NCBI RefSeq assembly: GCF_014692675.1 | Contig: NZ_JABFCZ010000013.1 | Span: 1-64,000 of the forward strand | Length of the DNA stretch: 64,000 nucleotides | Direction of reading: 5' to 3' | Source: Roseibium aggregatum | GTDB lineage: Bacteria > Pseudomonadota > Alphaproteobacteria > Rhizobiales > Stappiaceae | Part shown: one piece after another, positions 17,203 to 61,917 of the stretch | How the letters are laid out: each line of letters starts with the position of its first letter | Position numbering within the stretch: position 1 is the stretch's first letter | The notes under the pieces: generated by a model | What the model saw: only the letters and a program-made list of their open reading frames with translations | What the model was told of the DNA's origin: nothing | The model's database searches: none | Translations under genes and position numbers: made by a program

Positions 17203-17273
17203 TCACATGATGCTAATCGGTATAGCGCCGGGTTACCGCCCGGAGAAAGCAGGTTCGACTCCTGTCGTGTGAA
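17203..17273 (+). other. tRNA-like sequence with a degenerate anticodon arm; probable tRNA remnant
   Basis: Perfect 7-bp acceptor pairing (TCACATG/CGTGTGA), a 4-bp D stem and a T-arm-like GCAGG-TTCGACT-CCTGT. The anticodon arm can only form with a 6-nt loop. Confidence 0.4.
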
Positions 17274-17345
17274 CACGGATAGCTCAGTTGGTAGAGCATC
17301 GGACTTTTAATCCGACGGTCGCGGGTTCAACTCCCGCTCCAAGAG
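17273..17345 (+). pseudogene. tRNA-Lys(TTT)-like gene with intact D, anticodon and T arms but a non-complementary acceptor 3' strand
   Basis: ACACGGA-TA-GCTC-AGTTGGTA-GAGC-A-TCGGA-CTTTTAA-TCCGA-CGGTC-GCGGG-TTCAACT-CCCGC-TCCAAGA. Only 4 of 7 acceptor pairs form, where TCCGTGT is expected. Confidence 0.55.
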
Positions 17346-17376
17346 GTAACCCTTCGGGTGTCGGGTTCAACTCCCG
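17322..17376 (+). repeat. 15-bp direct repeat CGGGTTCAACTCCCG (tRNA T-arm segment) present twice, 25 bp apart
   Basis: Copies at 17322-17336 and 17362-17376. This resembles an att-site duplication of a tRNA 3' segment. Confidence 0.6.
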
Positions 17377-17725
17377 AATTGGCCTGTCACGCCAACAGCT
17401 TTAGGTGCTGTCTCAATTGCGGGATTTGAAGGGAGCTTGCGGAGGCAAGCCTGACCCGCTGCGTTCGCGCGGCCGGGAAAGCCTTGCCGATGCCCGGCGC
17501 TCCCGTCCGGCCTGTTGCAACGACCGCACCGCGGACTTGCCGAAACCGCCTGTTTTCGAACGGGCGCGCTCCGCCTGTCCGCCGCAACGTCCCCTTGCTT
17601 CCGGCCCGGCGCGGGCCCCGGTGCTCCCTTCGGATCTCCTGTGTCTGCGGCCCCGGGAATGAAACGAAACAGACAAACAGAAAGGACGACCAAAGTGCCT
17701 TAGCGCGATGGAAGGAGTAACGAAG

Positions 17726-44650: not shown

Positions 44651-44874
44651 TCTTAACTCCTATGCTACCTGACCGTAACGCGGACGGACGGCCTTTGGTT
44701 CCCAGCCCCGGCCCACGGGACTTGCCCTGTGAGGACCTGCACGACACACACACCACCCATATGGCCCAATTGTGTTGTTTAAAAAAAAACGGTTTCTGAC
44801 CGGAGCGGTCATCCCGTCAGGCAACAAAAAAGGGCGGATCGCTCCGCCCTTTTCTTATCCGTATGAAACCGGTG

Positions 44875-49312: not shown

Positions 49313-50275
49313 ATGAAAACGCCCCGCATACCGGCGATTGACGCCCTGCGAGGCGTCGCCATCCTGGCGATGATCGCCTATCACCTGTCCTGGGATCTTT
49401 CCTGGTTCGGCTTCGTCGACTGGCCGGTCTCGGAGGGACCGGGCTGGCGGATCTTCTCCGGCGCGATCGCCGGTTCCTTTCTGTTTCTTGCCGGCGCCGG
49501 CCTGGTTCTTGCCCACCGGGACGGGATCCGCTGGAAGGCCTTCTGGAAAAGGGAGGCGGTTATTGTCGCGGCGGCACTTTTCGTTTCCGCGGGCACTTTC
49601 CTGGCCTTCTCCAATATTTTCGTTCGCTTCGGCATTCTCCATTCGATCGCCGCCGGCAGCCTGATCGCCCTTCCCTTCGTGCGTCTGCCGGCCGTGGTAT
49701 CCTATATGGCAGCGATCGTGGTGGTCACCCTGCCCCGCTGGGCAAGCACCCCGGTCTTCGACGGCGATCTGTTCTCATGGACGGGCCTGGGCACGCCGGC
49801 ATCCGGCTCTGTCGACTATGTTCCGCTCGCTCCCTGGCTCGCCGCCGTGCTGCTTGGTGTCGCGGTCTTCAAGACCCCGGGCATACCGGCTGTTCTCGAT
49901 GCGCTGCGTCCCATGCGCCTCGCCTCGTGGCCCGGCCGCATGATCCGGTTATGCGGCCGCAGGTCGTTGACGATCTATCTGCTGCATCAGCCGATCCTTT
50001 ACGGGCTGGTGTGGTCGCTGGCCGCCGCGGGACTTGCCCCCGACCGGGCCGCGCTCGATTTTCAGGAGAACTGCATCAATTCCTGCGTTCTGGCCCGCGG
50101 CACGGACGCGCAATGTTCGAAGATCTGCGCCTGCACCCTGAACACGCTGAAGGAAGACGGCCTGTGGGAGCCTTTGCTGACAAATCCGGAAGATCCGGAA
50201 CTTTTGCAGGACATGAACAACCACTATTCCGCCTGCAGTTTTCCCCCCGAGAACACCGAAACGCCTAACCGCTAA
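49313..50275 (+). CDS. DUF1624 (heparan-alpha-glucosaminide N-acetyltransferase-like) membrane protein with a C-terminal Cys-rich extracytoplasmic segment
   Basis: N-terminal IPAIDALRGVAILAMIAYHLSWDL, multiple TM helices, and a C-terminal CINSCVLARGTDAQCSKICAC. Confidence 0.6.
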   Translation: MKTPRIPAIDALRGVAILAMIAYHLSWDLSWFGFVDWPVSEGPGWRIFSGAIAGSFLFLAGAGLVLAHRDGIRWKAFWKREAVIVAAALFVSAGTFLAFSNIFVRFGILHSIAAGSLIALPFVRLPAVVSYMAAIVVVTLPRWASTPVFDGDLFSWTGLGTPASGSVDYVPLAPWLAAVLLGVAVFKTPGIPAVLDALRPMRLASWPGRMIRLCGRRSLTIYLLHQPILYGLVWSLAAAGLAPDRAALDFQENCINSCVLARGTDAQCSKICACTLNTLKEDGLWEPLLTNPEDPELLQDMNNHYSACSFPPENTETPNR

Positions 50276-51532: not shown

Positions 51533-51668
51533 GGGCCGGTAGCTTCAGTCGCTTCAGCCGCTTCCGTCTTCACCGCCTCGTGGATCCGGATGACGGCCTT
51601 GCGCTCCCCCGGCAAGCGGGGCGCCGCCGGCCATCAAAAAATATTCTTGAGGCAGGTGATTTCGGTCG

Positions 51669-51829
51669 AAATTCCGCCGCAATCCGGGCGCCAATCTCAC
51701 GACTGCGGAATGACACGCGCCCCGCGTAAGCCCTTCTCCGGCCAGCCGTATTCCAGCTCCGTCAGAGGACCCAAGCCGCTGGAGCCACCCGGGGGAACCG
51801 GGCCGGGCCCCGCCGCGACAGCACCGCAC
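51669..51829 (+). ncRNA. Conserved ~160-nt non-coding leader element, copy 1 (putative cis-regulatory RNA or regulatory region), 100 nt upstream of a DUF1344-like gene
   Basis: About 80% nucleotide identity to 61381-61543, including the block GCGGAATGACACGCGCCCYGCGTAAGCCCTTCT and GGACCCAAGCCGC. Translation is not conserved between copies. A stem GCGGGCGC/GCGCCCGC with a semi-compensatory change can form. Confidence 0.55.
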
Positions 51830-51928
51830 GAGCAAAACAGTTTCGACCTGTTCTCAATCCCGTGGCAGCCGGCAATCCGCCCGGCGGCGGTCCTATCAAA
51901 CATGCCTGCTCTGAATGGAGTAACTTCA

Positions 51929-52186
51929 ATGCGCCTGTCTCTTCTCGCAGCCCTTGCCGTTCTGCTTCCCCTGTCCGTTTCCGCCGCCTACGCGGAAGAC
52001 GCCAGCGGCCAGGTCACCGAAGTCGATACACAGACCCGGACCATCGTTCTGGAAGAAACAACGACCTTCATCGTCGATGACGGCGTCCACATGAACAGCG
52101 TGGATGTCGGCGACAACGTCCAGATCAAATTCAGCTCGGCGGCCGACGGCACGCTCCACGCCTCCGAAGTCACTGTAACGGAATAA
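51929..52186 (+). CDS. DUF1344-like small secreted protein, paralog 1
   Basis: Signal peptide MRLSLLAALAVLLPLSVSAAYA, then a ~63-aa mature domain with the pattern G-V-EVD---RTIVLE--TT--V-D---------GD-V-I-F. Confidence 0.6.
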   Translation: MRLSLLAALAVLLPLSVSAAYAEDASGQVTEVDTQTRTIVLEETTTFIVDDGVHMNSVDVGDNVQIKFSSAADGTLHASEVTVTE

Positions 52187-52240
52187 TGGCCTGGCGCTCG
52201 CCGGACGGAGCTTCTTTCCGGCGGGCGCGCCTCTCCCTGT

Positions 52241-54772
52241 TCAGGCCGTCTTGGCGCGAATAGTCCATCGACGCCCTCTGCCTGGAAGCATTAGATCCAG
52301 TTTGGACAACGGCACCGGATGACTGAAAAGATAGCCTTGAACCTGATGACATCCGACCGCCCGGAGAAAATCCAGCTGTTCGGGCGCTTCAACCCCTTCG
52401 GCGACGGTGGTGACCTGGAGCGAACGCGCCAGCCCGGTCACGGCCTTCACGATTGCGGCACAATCGGCATTGCTTTGAACCTTTGACACGAAAGACCGGT
52501 CGATCTTGATCTTGTCAAAGGGAAACTCCTGCAGATAGGTCAAGGAGGAATAGCCTGTTCCGAAATCGTCGAGAACCACGGACGCACCGAGTTCCCGCAA
52601 GGCGTGAAGCGTTGCCAGGTTTTCTTCGTTCTGCTGCAGCAGGACCGATTCCGTGACCTCCACTTCCAGCCGTTCCGGCGCCAGACCGGTCTGGGCAAGC
52701 GTGGCTTCGATCACCTGGAACAGTTTCGGATCCCGGAACTGAACCGGGGACAGGTTCACCGCGACCTTGATATGCGCAGGCAGGGTCATCGCGTCGGCGC
52801 ACGCCTTTCGCAACAGCCATCCGCCGAGTTCGAGGATCATTCCGGTTTCCTCGGCAAGTGCAATAAACGTGCCTGGAGAAATCGGGCCGCGCACGGGATG
52901 GGTCCACCGCGCCAGGGCTTCGACACCACACGTACTGCAGGTGCCCAGGTCGGTAATCGCCTGATAGTGCAAATCGATCTGTTCAAGGGATAGCGCTTCC
53001 CCGAGATCGGCGGCCAGGCTCCGCCGCGACCGGGTTTCGGCGGCCATCACGGGATCGAAAAACCGGTATCCCTTCCGCCCTTCCGATTTTGTCTTGTAGA
53101 GCGCGAGGTCGGCTTTTTTCAGGATATGGTCGGGCGTCGCGCCGTCTTCGGGCGCGATGGCAATGCCGATGCTCGTTGTAACGACGACTTCATTGCCGTC
53201 GATCAGGTAGGGCCCGTTCACGGCATTCAGGATATCTCTTGCGAGACGGGCCGCCGTTTCCCGCTGCCGGCCGCCATCGGTTGCCTGAAGGATCGCAAAC
53301 TCGTCACCGCCAAACCGCGCCACCGTATCGCGCGCGCCGGCGCAGTCTCGCAGGCGTTTGCCTATTTCGATCAGGAGGGCATCGCCGACAGGATGCCCGA
53401 GCGTATCGTTCACGGCCTTGAACTGGTCGAGATCAAGAACAAAGACCGCGAAGGTCTCTGCCCTGTCTTTCAGCCTGGCAAACGCGCCTTCGACTTCCTC
53501 GAGGAATGTCAGGCGGTTCGCCAAGGACGTCAGGGCGTCCTGCCGCGCCATGAGCGCAATCTTTTCTTCGGCGCGATGACGCTCGGTGACGTCGTCATGC
53601 GTCGCCACCCATCCGCCGCCCGGCATCGGACGATTGATGACATTGATAACCCGTCCGTCATCGGTCTCGATGATATGGGAAATCGCCTCGCCCTTTTCCA
53701 GGGCCGCCATGACTTTTGCCGTGAACGCCTTCACGTCGCCGTAGTCGACCCCCATCCATTTTCGAAATTCGATGACCTCTTCAAAAGACATTCCGGCACG
53801 GATCGCATCCGGCGGAATCCTGTACATGTCGAAATAACGCTGGTTGGACAGCACCAGGCGCGAATTCGCGTCCCACATGTTCAGGCCCTGCGACATGTTC
53901 TTCAACGCGGCGTTGAAATGCATGTTGCGCAGGCGCAGTTCTTCCTCCCGGCTCTTGAGAAGCCGGTTGTCCCGTTCGATTGTTTCCCGGAAGGCGGCGA
54001 CAGCCCGCACCATCTTTCCGATTTCGTCCTTCCGGCCGTTATCGTCAATCTCGACGTCCAGTTTGCCCGAGGACACATCCTGCATGAGATTCGTGATCGC
54101 CTGTATCGGACCGACAATCGATCTCGACAGGACCAGGGCCACGAAAAGACTGACGAGAACGGCCAACAGGCCACCAATGATCAGCAGGCGTTTCCTGGCG
54201 CTGGCCTCGCTCGCCAGATCTCCGGTGAAGGAGCGCGTTTCGTCGGCCACATGGAGGAAGAAGGAATCCAGGTTCTCGGCAACGACCTTGAACTCGTCAT
54301 CGACCATACCCAGCATCATCGTTGCCATCGGCGCATCGACGCTGCCGACGTCTATCGTGTCCCTGGCGACATGCTCATATTCTTTCCACTTGCCCTGGAG
54401 CATCTGGATCCGGTCGCGCTCCGCGGCAACGAGATCCTTTGGCTCGGCCAGTTCCGACAGAAGTGCAAAGGAGGCATCGATATCCTTGAAGACGTCTTCA
54501 TTGACGCCCTCCAGCAAGGCGGAATCGACGCCGTTGCTGGCCCAGGAGACATAACGGAAGATACCCACATGGGCCGCGACCGCCTTGTCCTTGAGCCGGG
54601 AAACCAGGAGCTGTTTGGGCAATGTGGCCGTTGACAGCCGGTTGAGCCCGACGTCCATGTTCGTGATCGTGAAATACGCATTCGCACCGAGAATGACGAG
54701 GCAGACCACGAGCAGGGCATAGGCGGCCAGCATCTTGGTTCGAATGGAAATGTTACGCAGCAGAAATGCCAT
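52241..54772 (-). CDS. Membrane sensor diguanylate cyclase/phosphodiesterase (periplasmic helical sensor-HAMP-PAS-GGDEF-EAL)
   Basis: TM1, a large periplasmic domain, TM2, HAMP, PAS, GGDEF (RFGGDEFAIL) and EAL (GVEALARWTHP...DDFGTGYSSL). Confidence 0.9.
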   Translation of the reverse strand: MAFLLRNISIRTKMLAAYALLVVCLVILGANAYFTITNMDVGLNRLSTATLPKQLLVSRLKDKAVAAHVGIFRYVSWASNGVDSALLEGVNEDVFKDIDASFALLSELAEPKDLVAAERDRIQMLQGKWKEYEHVARDTIDVGSVDAPMATMMLGMVDDEFKVVAENLDSFFLHVADETRSFTGDLASEASARKRLLIIGGLLAVLVSLFVALVLSRSIVGPIQAITNLMQDVSSGKLDVEIDDNGRKDEIGKMVRAVAAFRETIERDNRLLKSREEELRLRNMHFNAALKNMSQGLNMWDANSRLVLSNQRYFDMYRIPPDAIRAGMSFEEVIEFRKWMGVDYGDVKAFTAKVMAALEKGEAISHIIETDDGRVINVINRPMPGGGWVATHDDVTERHRAEEKIALMARQDALTSLANRLTFLEEVEGAFARLKDRAETFAVFVLDLDQFKAVNDTLGHPVGDALLIEIGKRLRDCAGARDTVARFGGDEFAILQATDGGRQRETAARLARDILNAVNGPYLIDGNEVVVTTSIGIAIAPEDGATPDHILKKADLALYKTKSEGRKGYRFFDPVMAAETRSRRSLAADLGEALSLEQIDLHYQAITDLGTCSTCGVEALARWTHPVRGPISPGTFIALAEETGMILELGGWLLRKACADAMTLPAHIKVAVNLSPVQFRDPKLFQVIEATLAQTGLAPERLEVEVTESVLLQQNEENLATLHALRELGASVVLDDFGTGYSSLTYLQEFPFDKIKIDRSFVSKVQSNADCAAIVKAVTGLARSLQVTTVAEGVEAPEQLDFLRAVGCHQVQGYLFSHPVPLSKLDLMLPGRGRRWTIRAKTA

Positions 54773-54805
54773 CGCCAGCGCCCCAGGCGTGTCTTAATTA
54801 TACGA

Positions 54806-55270
54806 TCAGAAGCGGTAGACCCCGACTCCTACGAAGTAATCGCCCATGCGCTCGATGTAGCTCGACTTGTCTTCGATCCTGTTGTTGAGCGGATTGGGCC
54901 ACTTGTAGTCGACCCAGCCGTGGCCGGGCTCGCCCTTGGCAATGTCGATCATCTCCTGGATCAGATACTTGCCGTCCTGGTCCTTGAGCTTCAGCAGGTT
55001 CTTGCCGACCAGCGCCGGCCGCGCTCCGTGGGCGACATTGACGCCGTTCAGGTCATAAATGAAAGGATAGAGATCCCGGTCATGGAACTCCGGGGTCGAC
55101 TGGTCGGTAACGGCCGCAAAGGTCTTCTCCCCGCCGTCGCGGTCAAACCGCTCGACGACACGTTTCACCATGTCGACCGCCTCTTGCTTCGTCCCGTATT
55201 CCGAAGCATGTGACAGAAAAGGGGTCAAAATGAACAAGGCTGCGAACAGCCGAAAAATATTTCGAAGCAT
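54806..55270 (-). CDS. Secreted single Cache-like domain protein
   Basis: Signal peptide MLRNIFRLFAALFILTPFLSHA plus a Cache-type fold sequence (YPFIYDLNGVNVAHGARPALVGKNLLKLKDQDGKYLIQEM...YFVGVGVYR). Confidence 0.6.
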   Translation of the reverse strand: MLRNIFRLFAALFILTPFLSHASEYGTKQEAVDMVKRVVERFDRDGGEKTFAAVTDQSTPEFHDRDLYPFIYDLNGVNVAHGARPALVGKNLLKLKDQDGKYLIQEMIDIAKGEPGHGWVDYKWPNPLNNRIEDKSSYIERMGDYFVGVGVYRF

Positions 55271-55457
55271 TTCACATCCTCCCGCTCCACCGGAAAAGAT
55301 GAAGTAAATATATTTATACAACCTAAATCTCTTAACACAGCGTCATTTATCGTATTTCTGATCGAGGCGATAACCTCCGGAAGGTGAACAAAATTTTTCA
55401 GGTATATTTAAAATTCCTGAGCATTTTTATTCTTCGATCACCACCGCAGCGCGAAAG

Positions 55458-55889
55458 GTGTTACTGCAGAGCGATGAAAGTGAACCGGCGGCAAAATCCG
55501 GCAGTTGCCGGTCCGCTCGCAAATGGGAAAAGCTCTTGACCGACGTTAAGCCCCTGAATGTCCTGTTCGTGTGCAGCCGCAACCAGTGGCGCAGCCCGAC
55601 CGGGGAAGCCGTGTTCAGGAAAATGGCGGGCGTCGCCACCCGGTCCGCGGGCACCAGCCGAAACGCCCGCCGCAAGCTGTCCCTTTCCGACATCCGCTGG
55701 GCCGATCTGATCCTGGTCATGGAGGAGAAGCACGCGTCCCGGATCCGGGCGGACTTCCGCCAGGAAGTTCGTCACAAGGCGCTTCACGTGCTCGATATTC
55801 CCGATGACTATCGCTACATGGATGAAGACCTGATCGAGCTGTTCCACGAAGCCGCCGGACCGATCATCGCCAATGCCATTGCAGATTAA
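55458..55889 (+). CDS. Low-molecular-weight protein-tyrosine-phosphatase/ArsC-like fold protein (start uncertain)
   Basis: P-loop LNVLFVCSRNQWRSP (the CX5R(S) signature). Confidence 0.6.
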   Translation: MLLQSDESEPAAKSGSCRSARKWEKLLTDVKPLNVLFVCSRNQWRSPTGEAVFRKMAGVATRSAGTSRNARRKLSLSDIRWADLILVMEEKHASRIRADFRQEVRHKALHVLDIPDDYRYMDEDLIELFHEAAGPIIANAIAD

Positions 55890-55956
55890 CACTTAAAACA
55901 GCCGGACCAGGACGGTCCCTCCGCCTTCGTCCGGCTGTTTCAATGCCGCGATTCCG

Positions 55957-56342
55957 TCAGGCGGCAGCCCGATCTTCCTCGGCAAACACGTCCATGGCAG
56001 CATTCAGCCCGTTGATTGCCGCCGGCAGGCCGCCATAGACCGCCATCTGCCAGATCGCCTCGACGATCTCGGTCCGGCTCACCCCCGCCGCCAGTGTGTG
56101 TTCGATGTTGATTTTCATTGCGGGCCGGTCTGGCCGCCCAGCGCGGTCAGCGCCGCAATCGTGCAAAGTTGCCGGGTCTTCAAATCCAGTCCCGGGCGGG
56201 CATAGTGCCGGCCATAGGCCCACTCGATCAGGCTTTCGGCGAAATCCGGCAGCAGCGCGCCGTATCGGTCATCGAGGATCTGTTCCAGATCCGGGTTCAG
56301 CTTCTTCGTCAGCTCACGGCCACGTTCCAGTGCAGTGCTCAT
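55957..56342 (-). pseudogene. Carboxymuconolactone decarboxylase (AhpD-like) gene split by a frameshift into two overlapping ORFs
   Basis: The N-terminal half (56115-56342, ...LKTRQLCTIAALTALGGQ) and C-terminal half (55957-56223, ...EHTLAAGVSRTEIVEAIWQMAVYGG) are in different frames and overlap around 56115-56223. Confidence 0.55.
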
Positions 56343-56360
56343 TCATCAGTCCTTTGAAGG

Positions 56361-56777
56361 TCACTGCGCGCCGTGTCCGGTTCGCGCGCAGTTTTCGAAA
56401 GACGGATCGACGGGTCCACCCGCTTCCATCTTCCGGTAGAGGTCGATCTTGTCGTCCAGAACGCTCAGCACCTCGGTGAGTCGGGCAATGTCTTCCGCCA
56501 CCTTTCCCCGGTGACGTTCCAGCATCTGCCGGCGCAGACCGAGCGAAGCGGCCCCCTTGCCGCGCAGATCCGCATACCGCAGCCGGTCCTTGATCCCCAT
56601 GCCGGTCGCCTTCAGCCGGTCGAGAAAATCGATCCACCGCAGCATCGCTGCATCATAGACCCGCCGGCCACCGCCATCGCGCGGCGCTTTGGGGATCAGG
56701 CCGATCTTTTCGTAATAACGCAGCGTATCGACGCTGAGCCCCGACTTTTCCGCAAGATCACCGATCAGCATGGACAT
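56361..56777 (-). CDS. MerR-family transcriptional regulator
   Basis: HTH MLIGDLAEKSGLSVDTLRYYEKIGLIPKAPRDGGGRRVYD. Confidence 0.8.
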   Translation of the reverse strand: MSMLIGDLAEKSGLSVDTLRYYEKIGLIPKAPRDGGGRRVYDAAMLRWIDFLDRLKATGMGIKDRLRYADLRGKGAASLGLRRQMLERHRGKVAEDIARLTEVLSVLDDKIDLYRKMEAGGPVDPSFENCARTGHGAQ

Positions 56778-56973
56778 TCTCCGAACAGGACGATTTGAAA
56801 GACCCTAGGTGCTGGAGTGCACTCCAGGTCAAGAACCGGTTTTCGCTTTTTTCGCTCCAAAGATGGCCGCAAGACGCCTCTCATCCACAAAGCGACGGTT
56901 TTTATTGATCCACCATTCAAAAAAACGCTAGAAAAACCGCGAGGCCAGAAATTTCTTCAGACGGAGATCCCCG

Positions 56974-58491
56974 ATGAGCCACGCCAAGAACATTCTCGTC
57001 CTGATGGTGGATCAGTTGAACGGAACGCTGTTTCCGGACGGGCCTGCCGGGTTTCTCCATGCACCGAACCTGAAGAAGCTCGCCGCCCGCTCCGCCCGCT
57101 TCCGCAACGCCTATACGGCCTCGCCGCTCTGCGCCCCCGGCCGGGCAAGTTTCATGTCCGGGCAACTGCCGCAGCGGACCCGGGTCTATGACAATGCCGC
57201 GGAATTTGCGTCCGATATTCCGACCTACGCCCATCACCTGCGCCGCGCCGGCTATACCACCTGCCTCTCGGGCAAGATGCATTTCGTCGGCCCGGACCAG
57301 TTGCACGGTTTCGAGGAACGGCTGACCACGGATATCTATCCGGCCGATTTCGGCTGGACGCCGGACTACCGCAGGCCCGGCGAGCGGATCGACTGGTGGT
57401 ACCACAACATGGGCTCGGTCACCGGCGCCGGCGTCGCGGAAATCACCAACCAGATGGAATATGACGACGACGTCGCGTTCCAGGCGGTGCGCAAGATCTA
57501 CGATTACGGCCGCGGCAAGTACGACCGGCCGTGGATGCTGACCGTCAGCTTCACCCATCCGCACGACCCTTACGTGGCGCGCAAGAAGTACTGGGACCTT
57601 TACGAGGACTGCGAGCACCTGCTGCCGGAAGTTCCCGCCATCCCCTATGAAGACCAGGACGCCCATTCCAAACGCATCTTCGATGCCAACGACTGGCGCA
57701 GCTTCGCCATCACCGGGGAGGACATCCGCCGTTCGCGCCGGGCATATTTCGCCAACCTCTCCTATCTGGACGACAAGATCGGCGAGATCCTGACGGCGCT
57801 CGATGCCATGCGCATGACCGACGACACGACCATCGTCTTCGTGTCCGACCACGGCGACATGCTCGGCGAGCGGGGACTGTGGTTCAAGATGACCTTCTTC
57901 GAGGGCTCCTCCCGCGTGCCGCTGATGGTCGCGGACCCGGACATGCCATCCGGCCTCTACGAAACCCCGGTGAGCACGCTGGACGTGCTGCCCACGCTGG
58001 CCGAACTCGCCGGCATCGACATGGACGAAATCATGCCCTGGACCGACGGCGAAAGCCTCGTGCCGCTGGCGAACGGCGTGAAGCGCCTGTCGCCGGTACG
58101 CATGGAATATGCCGCGGAAGCGTCCTACGCGCCGCTGGTCGGCCTCCGCCGGGGCCCTTACAAATACGTCCATTGCGAACTCGACCCGCCTCAGCTTTTC
58201 GATCTGGAAAAAGACCCGCTGGAACTGAACAACCTCGCTGAGGACACCGCATTCACCGACATTGCCGCAGAGCTCGCCGCCGAAGTTCGCGACACCTGGG
58301 ACATGGCCGCCTTCGACGCGGATATCCGCCAGTCCCAGGCCCGGCGCTGGATCGTCTACGAGGCGCTGAGAAACGGCGCCTATTTCCCGTGGGACTACCA
58401 GCCCCTGCAGAAGGCATCCGAGCGCTACATGCGCAATCACATGGACCTGAACGAGGTCGAAGAAGGCCAGCGGTTCCCGCGGGGCGAGTGA
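56974..58491 (+). CDS. betC: Choline-sulfatase
   Basis: Sulfatase signature SPLCAPGRASFMSG (the C-x-P-x-R formylglycine site), at the ~505 aa typical of BetC. Confidence 0.85.
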   Translation: MSHAKNILVLMVDQLNGTLFPDGPAGFLHAPNLKKLAARSARFRNAYTASPLCAPGRASFMSGQLPQRTRVYDNAAEFASDIPTYAHHLRRAGYTTCLSGKMHFVGPDQLHGFEERLTTDIYPADFGWTPDYRRPGERIDWWYHNMGSVTGAGVAEITNQMEYDDDVAFQAVRKIYDYGRGKYDRPWMLTVSFTHPHDPYVARKKYWDLYEDCEHLLPEVPAIPYEDQDAHSKRIFDANDWRSFAITGEDIRRSRRAYFANLSYLDDKIGEILTALDAMRMTDDTTIVFVSDHGDMLGERGLWFKMTFFEGSSRVPLMVADPDMPSGLYETPVSTLDVLPTLAELAGIDMDEIMPWTDGESLVPLANGVKRLSPVRMEYAAEASYAPLVGLRRGPYKYVHCELDPPQLFDLEKDPLELNNLAEDTAFTDIAAELAAEVRDTWDMAAFDADIRQSQARRWIVYEALRNGAYFPWDYQPLQKASERYMRNHMDLNEVEEGQRFPRGE

Positions 58492-58822
58492 GTTGGACCC
58501 GAGCGCGACCAAGCGCTTAAGCGCATGCCTTGGCGGCACTTTCGCTTACTGATTAAAAGATCAGCCGCGATGCGTGCTTCCGCATAAAAAAGAAGCACTA
58601 TTTAGCGGTTGTAATGGCCCGACCTACGCGTTCCTTTGCACTTCCTTAGAGTTTTGCCGCGATAAAATTTGCGAGGAGTTTTCTCATGGGCCTGTTGAGT
58701 GGGGTGTGACATTGCTGTTCAAACGATCGATCGGGCACAAGGAGCCGGCAATTGCCGGTTCTTCGAACCTTTCCGGAAAAAAGCGCATCCGGCTTCCGCA
58801 GTTTTCGGTCAAGACCCAGTTC

Positions 58823-61198
58823 ATGGGCGGTCTCGGCGTCATGCTGCTGTGCGCGGTCGGAGTCGGCGCCAGCGGCCTTCTTGCCGCCGGACAGGTGCAG
58901 CAAACCGTTTCCATCGCCAATCAGGCCAGCGGAATTCTGGGCAATGTTCCCGGCCTCCTGCGCCATCTGGGCGATTTCGGCCAGTCGGGAACGGACGAAG
59001 CCTCGGATGCGGTCCGCGCCGAAATCGCCGCCATCACCGGCCGGGCCGACCGGCTTGCTGCGGAGCGGCCTGACGAAGCGAACGAACTGGCAGCGATCAC
59101 TCGTGAACTGGACGGCGCGTTCGATACCCTTGCCGGCGCGCGGCAGAACCGGGACGATGCGGTTCAGGTGCTGAACGACATGACCTCCAGCCTGCTGGCG
59201 ACAACCGGCACGGCCTTCGAACAGATCGAGGCACTGGCAAGCCAGCGCGTCGCGGCGACCCTAGTCAATGAAGGCAAGCTGCAGAAGCTGTCGGGCGTGG
59301 AGTCTCGCATCAGCGACATGCGCGTTGCCATCGTCATGATCGGCAAGGACACCGCCGAGATAACGCAGCAGGCGGACAAGAAGCTGGCCAAGAACGTCGT
59401 GAAACAGATCAAGGATCTTGAGAAAGACGCCAAAGCCGTCCGCAGGGCGGTCAAGCTTGATACGGTCAAGAATCTGGCGAAGACCTTTCTTGCGCAGACC
59501 AAGGATCTCGCAAAGAAGGTCGGCTCCGCCGAACCGGGCGACTTCGCACCGGCCGTGGCGTCCCTTTCCAGCCTGATCGGCGACCTGCAGGCCGCGGTCA
59601 AGACACCGATTTCGGACATGAAGACGGAGCTGCGCGCCTTCGAGACGGTGAACGCGGCCATCGCCCGCCTGTCGACCAACACCCAGACCCTTGCCCGCGG
59701 CGCCGTCAGCATCAGGAGCACCTATGCCGATTACCTGAAGCAGCCCTCCGCCGAAGCGGCAACGGTTCTCCAGGGCATCCTCGACGAAATGACGAGGGTC
59801 TCCGGCAACATGGCCGATACCCTGACCAGGACCATATCGGAAACCGGCGACAAGGACGTTCTGGCGGTTCTGAACGGTTCTGTTGCGGCCCTGATCGAGG
59901 AAACCCGGGCGGCAACGGCCAAGGTGCCCGATACCTTCGCCGGGGTCATGTCGGCAACGGAGACGCTGAATTCTGCGGACAACGTCTTTTCGAACACGGT
60001 CGCCAACCTGGCCGATGCCGCGCGCGGGATCAGCGAACAGTCCGGTTCACAGGCCGTTGCTGCCGGACAGGGCGCGAAAATCGAGATCGTGGTCGCTCTC
60101 GGCCTGGCGCTGGCGATCAGCGCCCTGCTCGCGGTCATGCTGTCGCGCACGATCATGACGCCGCTCCGCCTCCTGACCGCCGCCATGCGGCATCTTCAGG
60201 ACGGGAAAACCGATCTCGACATCCCGGCGGAACACCGGCGCGACGAGATCGGCGACATGGCCCGCGCCATCGGCACCTTCAGCGACCGGGAACGCGAACG
60301 GTTCCGTCTGGAGGAAGAGCAGCGTGTAAACGCCGAAGCGACCCACCATCGCCAGCAGAAGGTGGACCGGCTGGTTGCCGAGTTCCGCCAGGACATCGAA
60401 ACCGCCCTGTCGGCCGTCACGGAAAACATGCAGCAGCTCGAAGCCACCGCGGAACTCCTCACCGGCATCGCCAGCAACACCAGCGGCAAGAGCGAGGAAG
60501 TTTCGCAGGCCTCCCGAGACGCAACAGACAACGTACAGACCGTGGCCGCCGCCACGGAGGAACTGACCGCCTCCGTGCAGGAGGTCGGCCGTCAGGTGCA
60601 TGACACGCTCGGACGGGTGGAAGACGCGACCGGCGCAACCAGAACCTCGACCGAACAGGTGCGCGGCCTGTCCCGGGCCGCAGAGCGCATCGGCGATGTG
60701 GTGTCGCTCATCCAGGAAATCGCCGAACAGACGAACCTGCTCGCGCTCAATGCCACCATCGAGGCGGCGCGCGCCGGGGAAGCCGGCAAGGGCTTTGCCG
60801 TCGTCGCCTCCGAGGTCAAGTCGCTGGCCGGCCAGACCGCAAAGGCGACGGATGAAATCTCCAGCCATATTTCGGATATCCAGCAGTCCACCAATACGGC
60901 GGTTCAGGCGATCACCGGCATCATGGACATGATGGAAGCCGTCAACGAGACGGCCGCCGCCATGGCGGCTTCGGTGGAACAGCAGTCGTCCGCGACCGAG
61001 GAAATTTCCACCAGCATCAGCATCGCCGCTGAACGCACCTCCCACGTTACGGACAACATCCGGATCGTGTCGCAGGGATCTGGCGAAACCAGCCAGTCGG
61101 CCCAGCAGGTCGAACAGGTGACCGACGAGGCCACAAGACAGCTCGGTGCCCTGACCCAGCGGATAGAAACCTTCCTCAAGGACGTGGCGGCCGCTTAG
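58823..61198 (+). CDS. Methyl-accepting chemotaxis protein with a large N-terminal helical sensor and HAMP domain. The start may be an upstream non-ATG codon.
   Basis: TM1, a ~400-aa sensor, TM2, HAMP, and the highly conserved signalling domain ([42 protein letters not shown]). Confidence 0.9.
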
Positions 61199-61380
61199 AG
61201 TGTTTCCAGCAAAAGTGGATACCGGTTTTGCGGTTCGGAAACACGACAAGGAAAAAGTTCAGAACGTATCCCGAGATTGAAAGATCTCGGGATACGTTCT
61301 GAAAAATAAGAATTTCCCGGAGGCGCGGGACACGTTCCCGTCTCCGGGAAAAATTATTTTTCAAGCCTCTTTTCCAGCCT

Positions 61381-61543
61381 AAAATCCGCCGCAATGCGGG
61401 CGCTCATATCTCGATCGCGGAATGACACGCGCCCTGCGTAAGCCCTTCTGGGGAAACCGGAATCCGGATCCCCAAAGGACCCAAGCCGCCTGCTTCCCCG
61501 GACAGAACGTCCGGGAAAAGACAGGCCGCGACAGCTCCGCACC
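61381..61543 (+). ncRNA. Conserved ~160-nt non-coding leader element, copy 2, 111 nt upstream of the second DUF1344-like gene
   Basis: Paralogous to 51669-51829 (see that entry). The 147-aa ORF listed over it (61422-61865) is out of frame with the downstream gene and is not conserved at protein level. Confidence 0.55.
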
Positions 61544-61653
61544 TTTATTAAAAACCAAACCCCGATACCCCCCGGCAGGATCCGAGGATACGGCTCCCCG
61601 CGCCTTGAGGCCGGCCCGTCCTCACCTTCGGGGCTCTCTCTGGAGATCCTGGA

Positions 61654-61917
61654 ATGCGCATGTTCAAACGCCTGGTGGCCGTCCTGGCCGTGATGGTCGT
61701 CCTGCCGCTCTCGCACGCCTTTGCCGACGAGACCACAGGCACCATTGTGGAGATCGACCCGGACGCGAAATCCATCGTTCTGGACGACGACACCGTCTAC
61801 GTCCTGCCGGACACCATCGATCCGGAAGGATTGAATATCGGCGACGTGGTGCAGATCACCTATAGCGAATCCGACAGCGGCACCCTGGTCGTGACCGCAC
61901 TTTCCGTCACCAACTGA
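61654..61917 (+). CDS. DUF1344-like small secreted protein, paralog 2
   Basis: Signal peptide MRMFKRLVAVLAVMVVLPLSHAFA plus a mature domain GTIVEIDPDAKSIVLDDDTVYVLPDTIDPEGLNIGDVVQITY that aligns to paralog 1. Confidence 0.6.
   Translation: MRMFKRLVAVLAVMVVLPLSHAFADETTGTIVEIDPDAKSIVLDDDTVYVLPDTIDPEGLNIGDVVQITYSESDSGTLVVTALSVTN

Follow-up and report, generated by a model that had tools for sequence, protein, structure and literature searches.

A conserved non-coding element upstream of DUF1344-like genes in Roseibium is a candidate cis-regulatory leader RNA

The first 64,000 nucleotides (nt) of Roseibium aggregatum contig NZ_JABFCZ010000013.1, hereafter the window, carry two copies, A and B, of a non-coding element that stands upstream of paralogous genes for small signal-peptide proteins. 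The element is real, selectively conserved and undescribed, with known copies restricted to Roseibium, a genus of marine bacteria, and we describe it as an orphan motif and a candidate cis-regulatory RNA. On balance, it probably acts in cis as a structured 5′ leader RNA controlling small periplasmic proteins of the DUF1344-like family, which have an oligonucleotide/oligosaccharide-binding (OB) fold. This reading draws on the selective conservation of the element relative to its surroundings and on the presence of the same element before four diverged gene types.

Two selectively conserved copies in the window

Copy A, from block 1 to block 4, spans 51669..51832 (covariance-model score 143 bits, E 3e-35; nhmmer E 3e-40; also seen in alignments), and copy B spans 61381..61545 (191.5 bits, E 1e-47; also found by nhmmer); both, with all their parts described below, lie on the + strand. 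Four near-identical blocks common to the two copies were found by MAFFT and recovered by a repeat search, in which match D1 covers 78 nt at 83% identity and matches D7 and D8 are the distal blocks, in the places where an earlier note on this DNA had put them. The 18-mer GCGGAATGACACGCGCCC has exactly 2 occurrences in the 64 kilobases (kb) against 0.2 expected, and neither nhmmer nor the covariance model found a third copy of the element in the 64 kb.

A global alignment from block 1 to block 4 puts the identity of the copies at 74% (122/165 columns), below the approximately 80% of the earlier note, and the coding sequences of genes A and B are 59% identical and their proteins 32%. Outside these parts the loci are no more alike than shuffled sequence (48.9 ± 2.3, maximum 54.7): identity is 47–49% in the linker before the ATG, in the 100 nt upstream and in the 100 nt that follow the stop codon. 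The element ends 99 nt before the ATG of gene A (51929) and 110 nt before that of gene B (61654); the similarity of the two distances had been recognised earlier, with exact values of 100 and 111 nt that do not stand, the ATG of gene A being at 51929 and not 51930. As the note also claimed, the overlapping open reading frames (ORFs) differ, the one at 51590..52186 being in frame with gene A and the one at 61422..61865 out of frame with gene B, and the conservation is at the nucleotide and not the protein level.

A coding sequence or leader peptide was rejected on either strand, as the frame is not kept. Blocks 2 and 3 lie 60, 62, 63 or 75 nt apart, a distance that is not constant modulo 3 even within the orthologues of copy B, and one of these, L003, has a 1-nt deletion within block 2; since neither the spacing nor this deletion preserves a frame, the element is not coding. 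In both candidate frames, variable positions fall at first or second codon positions.

One element before four types of gene

Orthologous loci were collected by protein searches and contig look-ups from Roseibium metagenome-assembled genomes (MAGs) and marine metagenomes, giving a known sample of about ten distinct sequences from a single genus. The element is conserved outside the analysed genome, in orthologous Roseibium-like contigs, and precedes four diverged types of small signal-peptide OB-fold genes, all in such contigs. Type A comprises the window copy and L007; type B comprises the window copy, L001–L006, L013 and L014; type C is L010, from a Roseibium sp. assembly, at a locus syntenic with copy A; and type D is L009. 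Types A, B and C are full copies. The type D contig begins inside the element, so that only the 3′ third is present, yet this part scores 30.6 bits (E 2e-6) against the covariance model.

Conservation between paralogue types is confined to the element: in the linker before the start codon, identity is 29–48%. The distance from element to start codon ranges from 46 nt in type C, where it precedes an 87-amino-acid (aa) secreted protein only 28% identical to A, to about 300 nt in type D, with no convincing ORF in between. In every case the element is on the strand that codes for the downstream gene and lies past the end of the upstream gene, and its tie to paralogous DUF1344-like genes, proposed in the earlier note, holds across the loci.

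A mobile repeat, of the kind of miniature inverted-repeat transposable elements or repetitive extragenic palindromes, was rejected: the window has only two copies, those known all precede members of one gene family, and no copies were found in plasmids and phages (blastn) or in viral contigs (two-block pattern). The same two-block pattern returned two already-known contigs from the metagenome collection and otherwise only the chance-like matches L017 and L018. In L018 (968-1018), GTAAGCCCTTCC, a hairpin (CGGCCG...CGGCCG) and GGACCCAAGCC lie directly upstream of a predicted membrane-protein start and mimic blocks 2 and 3 with P3 (a hairpin described below); the other blocks are absent, and this is probably a chance match. 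The genome-collection pattern, GCGGAATGACA-N8-12-GTAAGCCCTT, matched one Roseibium MAG. It was too strict, excluding the type C variant GCGGAATGCAA, and the spread within Stappiaceae is therefore under-sampled. Weak nhmmer matches (E 0.2–0.3) in the neighbouring acyltransferase gene, at 50157-50212 in the window and 1222-1301 in the orthologous L007, were judged to be chance.

Hairpins along the element and their covariation

RNAalifold and single-sequence folds give three hairpins: P2 (ACGC-loop-GCGU), P3 (CCUU/AAGG, joining blocks 2 and 3) and P4 (GC.GC/GC.GC, joining blocks 3 and 4). The folds also offer a possible closing stem, GCGG/CCGC. Together, the closing stem and the three hairpins may form a four-way junction, an arrangement exemplified among aptamers by SAM-I, with the invariant joining strands AAUGACA, AAGC, ACCCAA and GACAGCN.

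Starting from the 5′ end of copy A, block 1, AAATTCCGCCGCAAT (51669..51683), is invariant apart from W in all ten full copies. Block 2, GCGGAATGACACGCGCCCCGCGTAAGCCCTTCT (51705..51737; MAFFT and folds), contains the small hairpin P2 (ACGC-loop-GCGT, 51715-51727). P3 (51732..51768) has a CCTT/AGGG-like base drawn from blocks 2 and 3 and a variable distal part, and is weaker here than in any other type (z −0.4). P4 (51775..51816; GC.GC...GC.GC) has a variable interior and pairs that covary between types. Block 4, GCCGCGACAGCACCGCAC (51812..51829), recovered by alignment, folds and repeat search, includes CCGC at 51824-51827, a candidate but ambiguous closing-stem partner of GCGG at 51705-51708. 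In copy B, block 2 (61417..61449) holds P2 at 61427-61439, and is followed by P3, CCTTC TGGGG AAA CCGG AAT CCGG AT CCCCA AAGG (61444..61478; −19.9 kcal/mol, z −4.6), by P4, GCCGCCTGC...CCCGGAC-loop-GTCCGGG...CAGGCCGC (61485..61529; −26.1 kcal/mol, z −4.7; covariation), and by block 4, GCCGCGACAGCTCCGCAC (61525..61542; alignment and repeat search). The copy B leader as a whole has z −2.65, and P3 and P4 have about −4.6 each.

P3 and P4 form in every type from differing sequences. The distal stem of P4 is CCGGAC/GUCCGG in B, CCCGG/CCGGG in A and UCUCUU/GAGAGA in C; among the B orthologues, one P3 pair occurs as G-C, G-U and A-U and one P4 pair changes from C-G to U-A. In the structure-independent MAFFT alignment (n=9), 94% of cells are paired and three pairs are changed on both sides, with a covariation score that 20 of 500 shuffles reach. 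The model-fitted alignment, which adds types C and D, has ten pairs changed on both sides and a covariation score of 0.143 versus 0.077; none of 500 shuffles reaches this result, and slid controls give 0–4 pairs. The shape of P3 and P4 is thus kept while their sequence changes, which, at the level of sequence comparison, favours a function of the RNA. The variable Y of block 2 and the 1-nt deletion of L003 both fall in the P2 loop, as an RNA hairpin would tolerate and a spaced DNA palindrome would not. In the B orthologues L013 (590-620) and L014, a 15-nt tandem duplication, AAGACAGGCCGCGAC x2, doubles the start of block 4, so the element tolerates insertion at the P4/block 4 boundary; these two also carry block 2 substitutions (GCGCAAGTCC).

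The covariation that the earlier note asked for is found in part, in P3 and P4, and not in the stem that the note itself had proposed, GCGGGCGC/GCGCCCGC. This stem (GCGGGCGC with GCGCCCYGC) is 92% paired; over nine sequences none of its pairs covaries, and pairing is lost in all seven variant cells, with GG>AA in L007 and G>A in L010 on the 5′ side, neither compensated. The position described as semi-compensatory (S/Y) lies opposite an invariant C or in a bulge.

Promoter and expression output

An AT-rich box, AAAAWWATTTTT, lies at an equivalent position in all types, approximately 30–40 nt before block 1. In copy A it reads AAAAAATATT and is followed by a −35-like CTTGAG (51636..51651), and a weak −10-like hexamer, GAAATT, stands at 51668-51673; the hexamers were read from the sequence, and a promoter role for them would be putative. 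Types A and C have GAAATT or CAAATT as the −10-like hexamer. In copy B (61349..61385), the box is accompanied by a sigma-70-like promoter, TTTTCA-16-TAAAAT (61358-61385), which the promoter scan called with 9/12 matches and which overlaps the 5′ edge of the element. With AAAAT of block 1 as the −10, the predicted transcription start is at about 61391-61393, and if transcription does begin at this edge, the mRNA would carry the element as its 5′ leader.

At neither locus did the scan call a terminator-like site on the + strand beyond the element. Several B orthologues have a T-rich run just after block 4, which types A and C lack, as do L002, L005 and L013. A classical attenuator was rejected on these two observations. 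The base of P3 pairs an anti-Shine–Dalgarno-like CCCUUCU with a Shine–Dalgarno-like AGAGGA, and complementarity also links the 3′ strand of P3 with the cognate ribosome-binding-site region (a pyrimidine tract and GGAG), with z −3 to −4.4 in both window copies, L002 and L004, which are four of the nine scorable sequences.

We propose that transcription would proceed from the 5′-edge promoter, made up of the AT-rich box, the −35-like hexamer and AAAWT of block 1 as the −10, so that almost all of the conserved sequence would be transcribed. The RNA would form at least two hairpins, P3 and P4, whose stems tolerate compensated change, as their covariation partly shows. The invariant strands GCGGAAUGACA, GCGUAAGCCCUUC, AGGACCCAAGCCGC and GCCGCGACAGCNCCGC would hold the hairpins together, may close into the ambiguous four-way junction, and could be the functional site, bound by a small ligand, a protein or a small RNA (sRNA). 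The output would most likely be translation initiation or mRNA stability, because there is no conserved intrinsic terminator and the start codon lies 46 to about 300 nt away. One possible route is that the CCCUUCU/AGAGGA pairing at the base of P3 competes with the pyrimidine tract and GGAG at the real ribosome-binding site; judged from sequence, a translational switch would be a reasonable guess.

If a leader of this kind is confirmed, it would add an undescribed structured RNA to the alphaproteobacterial repertoire and provide the first regulatory handle on the DUF1344-like periplasmic OB-fold proteins, a family widespread in Rhizobiales and Stappiaceae. The signal read by the invariant strands would, if the mechanism is true, hint at the role of these proteins. 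The narrow distribution keeps the present importance modest.

Weighing the alternatives

Several observations weigh against a leader RNA. The model-fitted alignment is biased towards the structure of the model, and P4 (helices 5 and 6) accounts for nearly all of the covariation. No variation is seen in the closing stem, in P2 or at the base of P3. Beyond P3 and P4 the fold depends on invariant GC-rich repeats and is ambiguous, five different CCGC sites being available to GCGG, and the junction is therefore put forward as a hypothesis. Copy A is not more stable than shuffled sequence (leader z +1.2; P3 and P4 z −0.1 to −0.4). G-U cells (10) and A-C cells (11) balance, and the transcribed strand therefore cannot be read from the pairs. 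The scan called no sigma-70 site at copy A. The ribosome-binding-site complementarity is not significant in L007, L010, L001, L005 and L013, and is not specific to the cognate gene. The breadth of the known sample, one genus, counts on the same side.

The main rival is a DNA-level region, in which a promoter and several transcription-factor sites co-regulate the paralogous genes and the hairpins are incidental. We regard it as rather improbable. The invariance of the blocks, including predicted paired positions, is what sequence-specific DNA recognition predicts; the AT-rich box and the −10- and −35-like hexamers belong to the conserved region, GCCGC recurs in blocks 1, 3 and 4, and the missing thermodynamic signal of copy A fits as well. 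However, the block spacers vary by up to 15 nt between types (60–75 nt between blocks 2 and 3), so that binding sites would rotate relative to each other, compensated changes maintain P3 and P4, and in L003 the candidate palindrome ACGC-N5-GCGT persists with altered spacing. It would also be unusual for an operator array of 165 bp to lie downstream of the predicted −10, and the EcfG motif of the general stress response is absent. The idea of an alternative-sigma recognition region, which the earlier note had offered beside a structured leader, is not supported: GGAAC-N16-17-CGTT occurs at neither locus, its one match in the window (44677-44702) is unrelated, and the GGAAT-to-CGTAA spacing in block 2, read from the sequence as 13 nt, is too short for an extracytoplasmic function (ECF) sigma-factor promoter, for which 16–17 nt is the norm. 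A suspected PhyR gene beside the type D locus encodes a double-receiver protein and not PhyR. Of that note's proposals, the structured 5′ leader RNA gains some covariation, in P3 and P4, and loses its proposed stem.

An independent sRNA gene, trans-acting or dual-function, could instead use the same promoter and end near block 4, its proximity to the DUF1344-like genes being no more than linkage. In its favour, conservation covers a discrete unit of about 150 nt at no fixed distance from the gene, the anti-Shine–Dalgarno-like (CCCUUCU) and Shine–Dalgarno-like motifs are present, and several B orthologues have the T-rich run just after block 4. Against this, that run is missing from the types and orthologues listed above and no terminator-like site was called at either window locus. 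Cis action, moreover, fits an element that is found nowhere but immediately upstream of a single gene family, on the same strand, and it would be unusual for an sRNA to have multiple paralogues, each with its own paralogous gene. We consider this explanation unlikely. That the element has no function, as a duplication remnant or a product of patchy gene conversion between paralogues, would agree with its restriction to one genus and its two copies in the window, but the flanks and linker have decayed to shuffled identity while blocks of 14–18 nt are identical across four types and several species, and conversion would not leave the spacers between blocks diverged; we consider it very improbable.

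Relation to known regulatory systems

As with orphan cis-regulatory leaders and riboswitch candidates, the element has the position of a long 5′ leader, its invariant strands are separated by hairpins whose sequence varies while pairing is kept, and it is linked to one gene family across paralogues. Unlike these, it matches nothing relevant in Rfam at E up to 10 and lacks a readily recognised expression platform, its junction-proximal stems are invariant instead of covarying, and it is confined to one genus. On a speculative reading that we think doubtful, the element would serve as the aptamer in a new class of riboswitch or protein-sensing RNA restricted to the genus, with junction strands binding a signal that sets periplasmic OB-fold protein production; if true, this would link the DUF1344-like proteins to a specific metabolite or envelope signal.

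The searches behind this comparison used Rfam 15. At gathering thresholds the whole window yields two tRNAs only; at E up to 10, only weak minus-strand matches touch either copy (sul1, MNV_3UTR and SAM_alpha, E ≥0.89), all far below their gathering scores. No named RNA family could thus be assigned to the element at either the gathering or the permissive setting, in agreement with the earlier note, which had called for such a search.

A multi-hairpin leader that could act on the Shine–Dalgarno region also recalls the ROSE-type RNA thermometers of alphaproteobacterial 5′ untranslated regions. As opposed to ROSE, which includes a Shine–Dalgarno hairpin, the conserved part here ends well before the start codon, at any of the distances given above; none of the downstream genes is a heat-shock gene, and the ROSE models are among the Rfam families that gave no match. 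EcfG promoters often drive small secreted proteins, and the element shares with them its place upstream of small periplasmic proteins and the GGAAT...CGTAA of block 2; the absent motif and short spacing described above set it apart.

Downstream genes and neighbouring features

Gene A (51929..52186, + strand) encodes an 85-aa signal-peptide protein that is DUF1344-like or CusF-like by Pfam and protein comparison. Gene B (61654..61917, + strand) encodes an 87-aa signal-peptide DUF1344 protein, assigned by Pfam, protein search and structure model, that is 100% identical to a Roseibium aggregatum protein. Against the DUF1344 gathering threshold of 23.1 bits (PF07076), gene B passes at 37.4 bits and gene A falls just under at 20.6 bits. 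The type C protein has no Pfam match and resembles A with E 7e-6; identity between the three gene groups compared is 28–35%. The structure model of protein B is a small OB-fold barrel, to which solved structures of small OB folds, PilY2 and CusF among them, are weak matches (TM about 0.6, all E >0.001); the metal-binding residues are absent. The fold search gave a generic OB fold only and was set aside as a functional clue, and a literature search on DUF1344, PF07076 and Labrenzia with riboswitch found nothing useful. In the type C locus (L010, 2628-3291), two tandem small secreted genes follow the element, the 87-aa gene and then a 96-aa DUF1344 gene, with a terminator-like hairpin between them.

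Both copies have signalling genes as neighbours. A gene for a HAMP-PAS-GGDEF-EAL protein (52241-54772, − strand) converges on gene A, and a gene for a HAMP methyl-accepting chemotaxis protein (58574-61198, + strand) ends just upstream of copy B; a CHASE4-GGDEF gene lies near B orthologues too. Between the chemotaxis-receptor gene and copy B, the region 61200-61324 contains a perfect 20-bp inverted repeat, TTCAGAACGTATCCCGAGAT...ATCTCGGGATACGTTCTGAA (core 61258-61303). This repeat is covered by an Rfam match to the Brucella sRNA CI27 that, at 34.4 bits (E 8e-6), stays below the gathering score of 59.8. The palindrome looks like an inserted palindromic repeat element, as the stretch is missing from the orthologous intergenic region of L001.

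Elsewhere in the window, 17203-17380 holds a cluster of tRNA-like pieces. ARAGORN reports an odd 'tRNA-???' with a 2-nt anticodon at 17203-17274, Rfam a tRNA at 17273-17345 (60.7 bits) with a UUU anticodon and an unpaired acceptor stem, and a T-arm-like repeat, GGGTTCAACTCCCG, occurs further on at about 17363. The cluster may be an integration-site remnant or a group of degenerate tRNAs.

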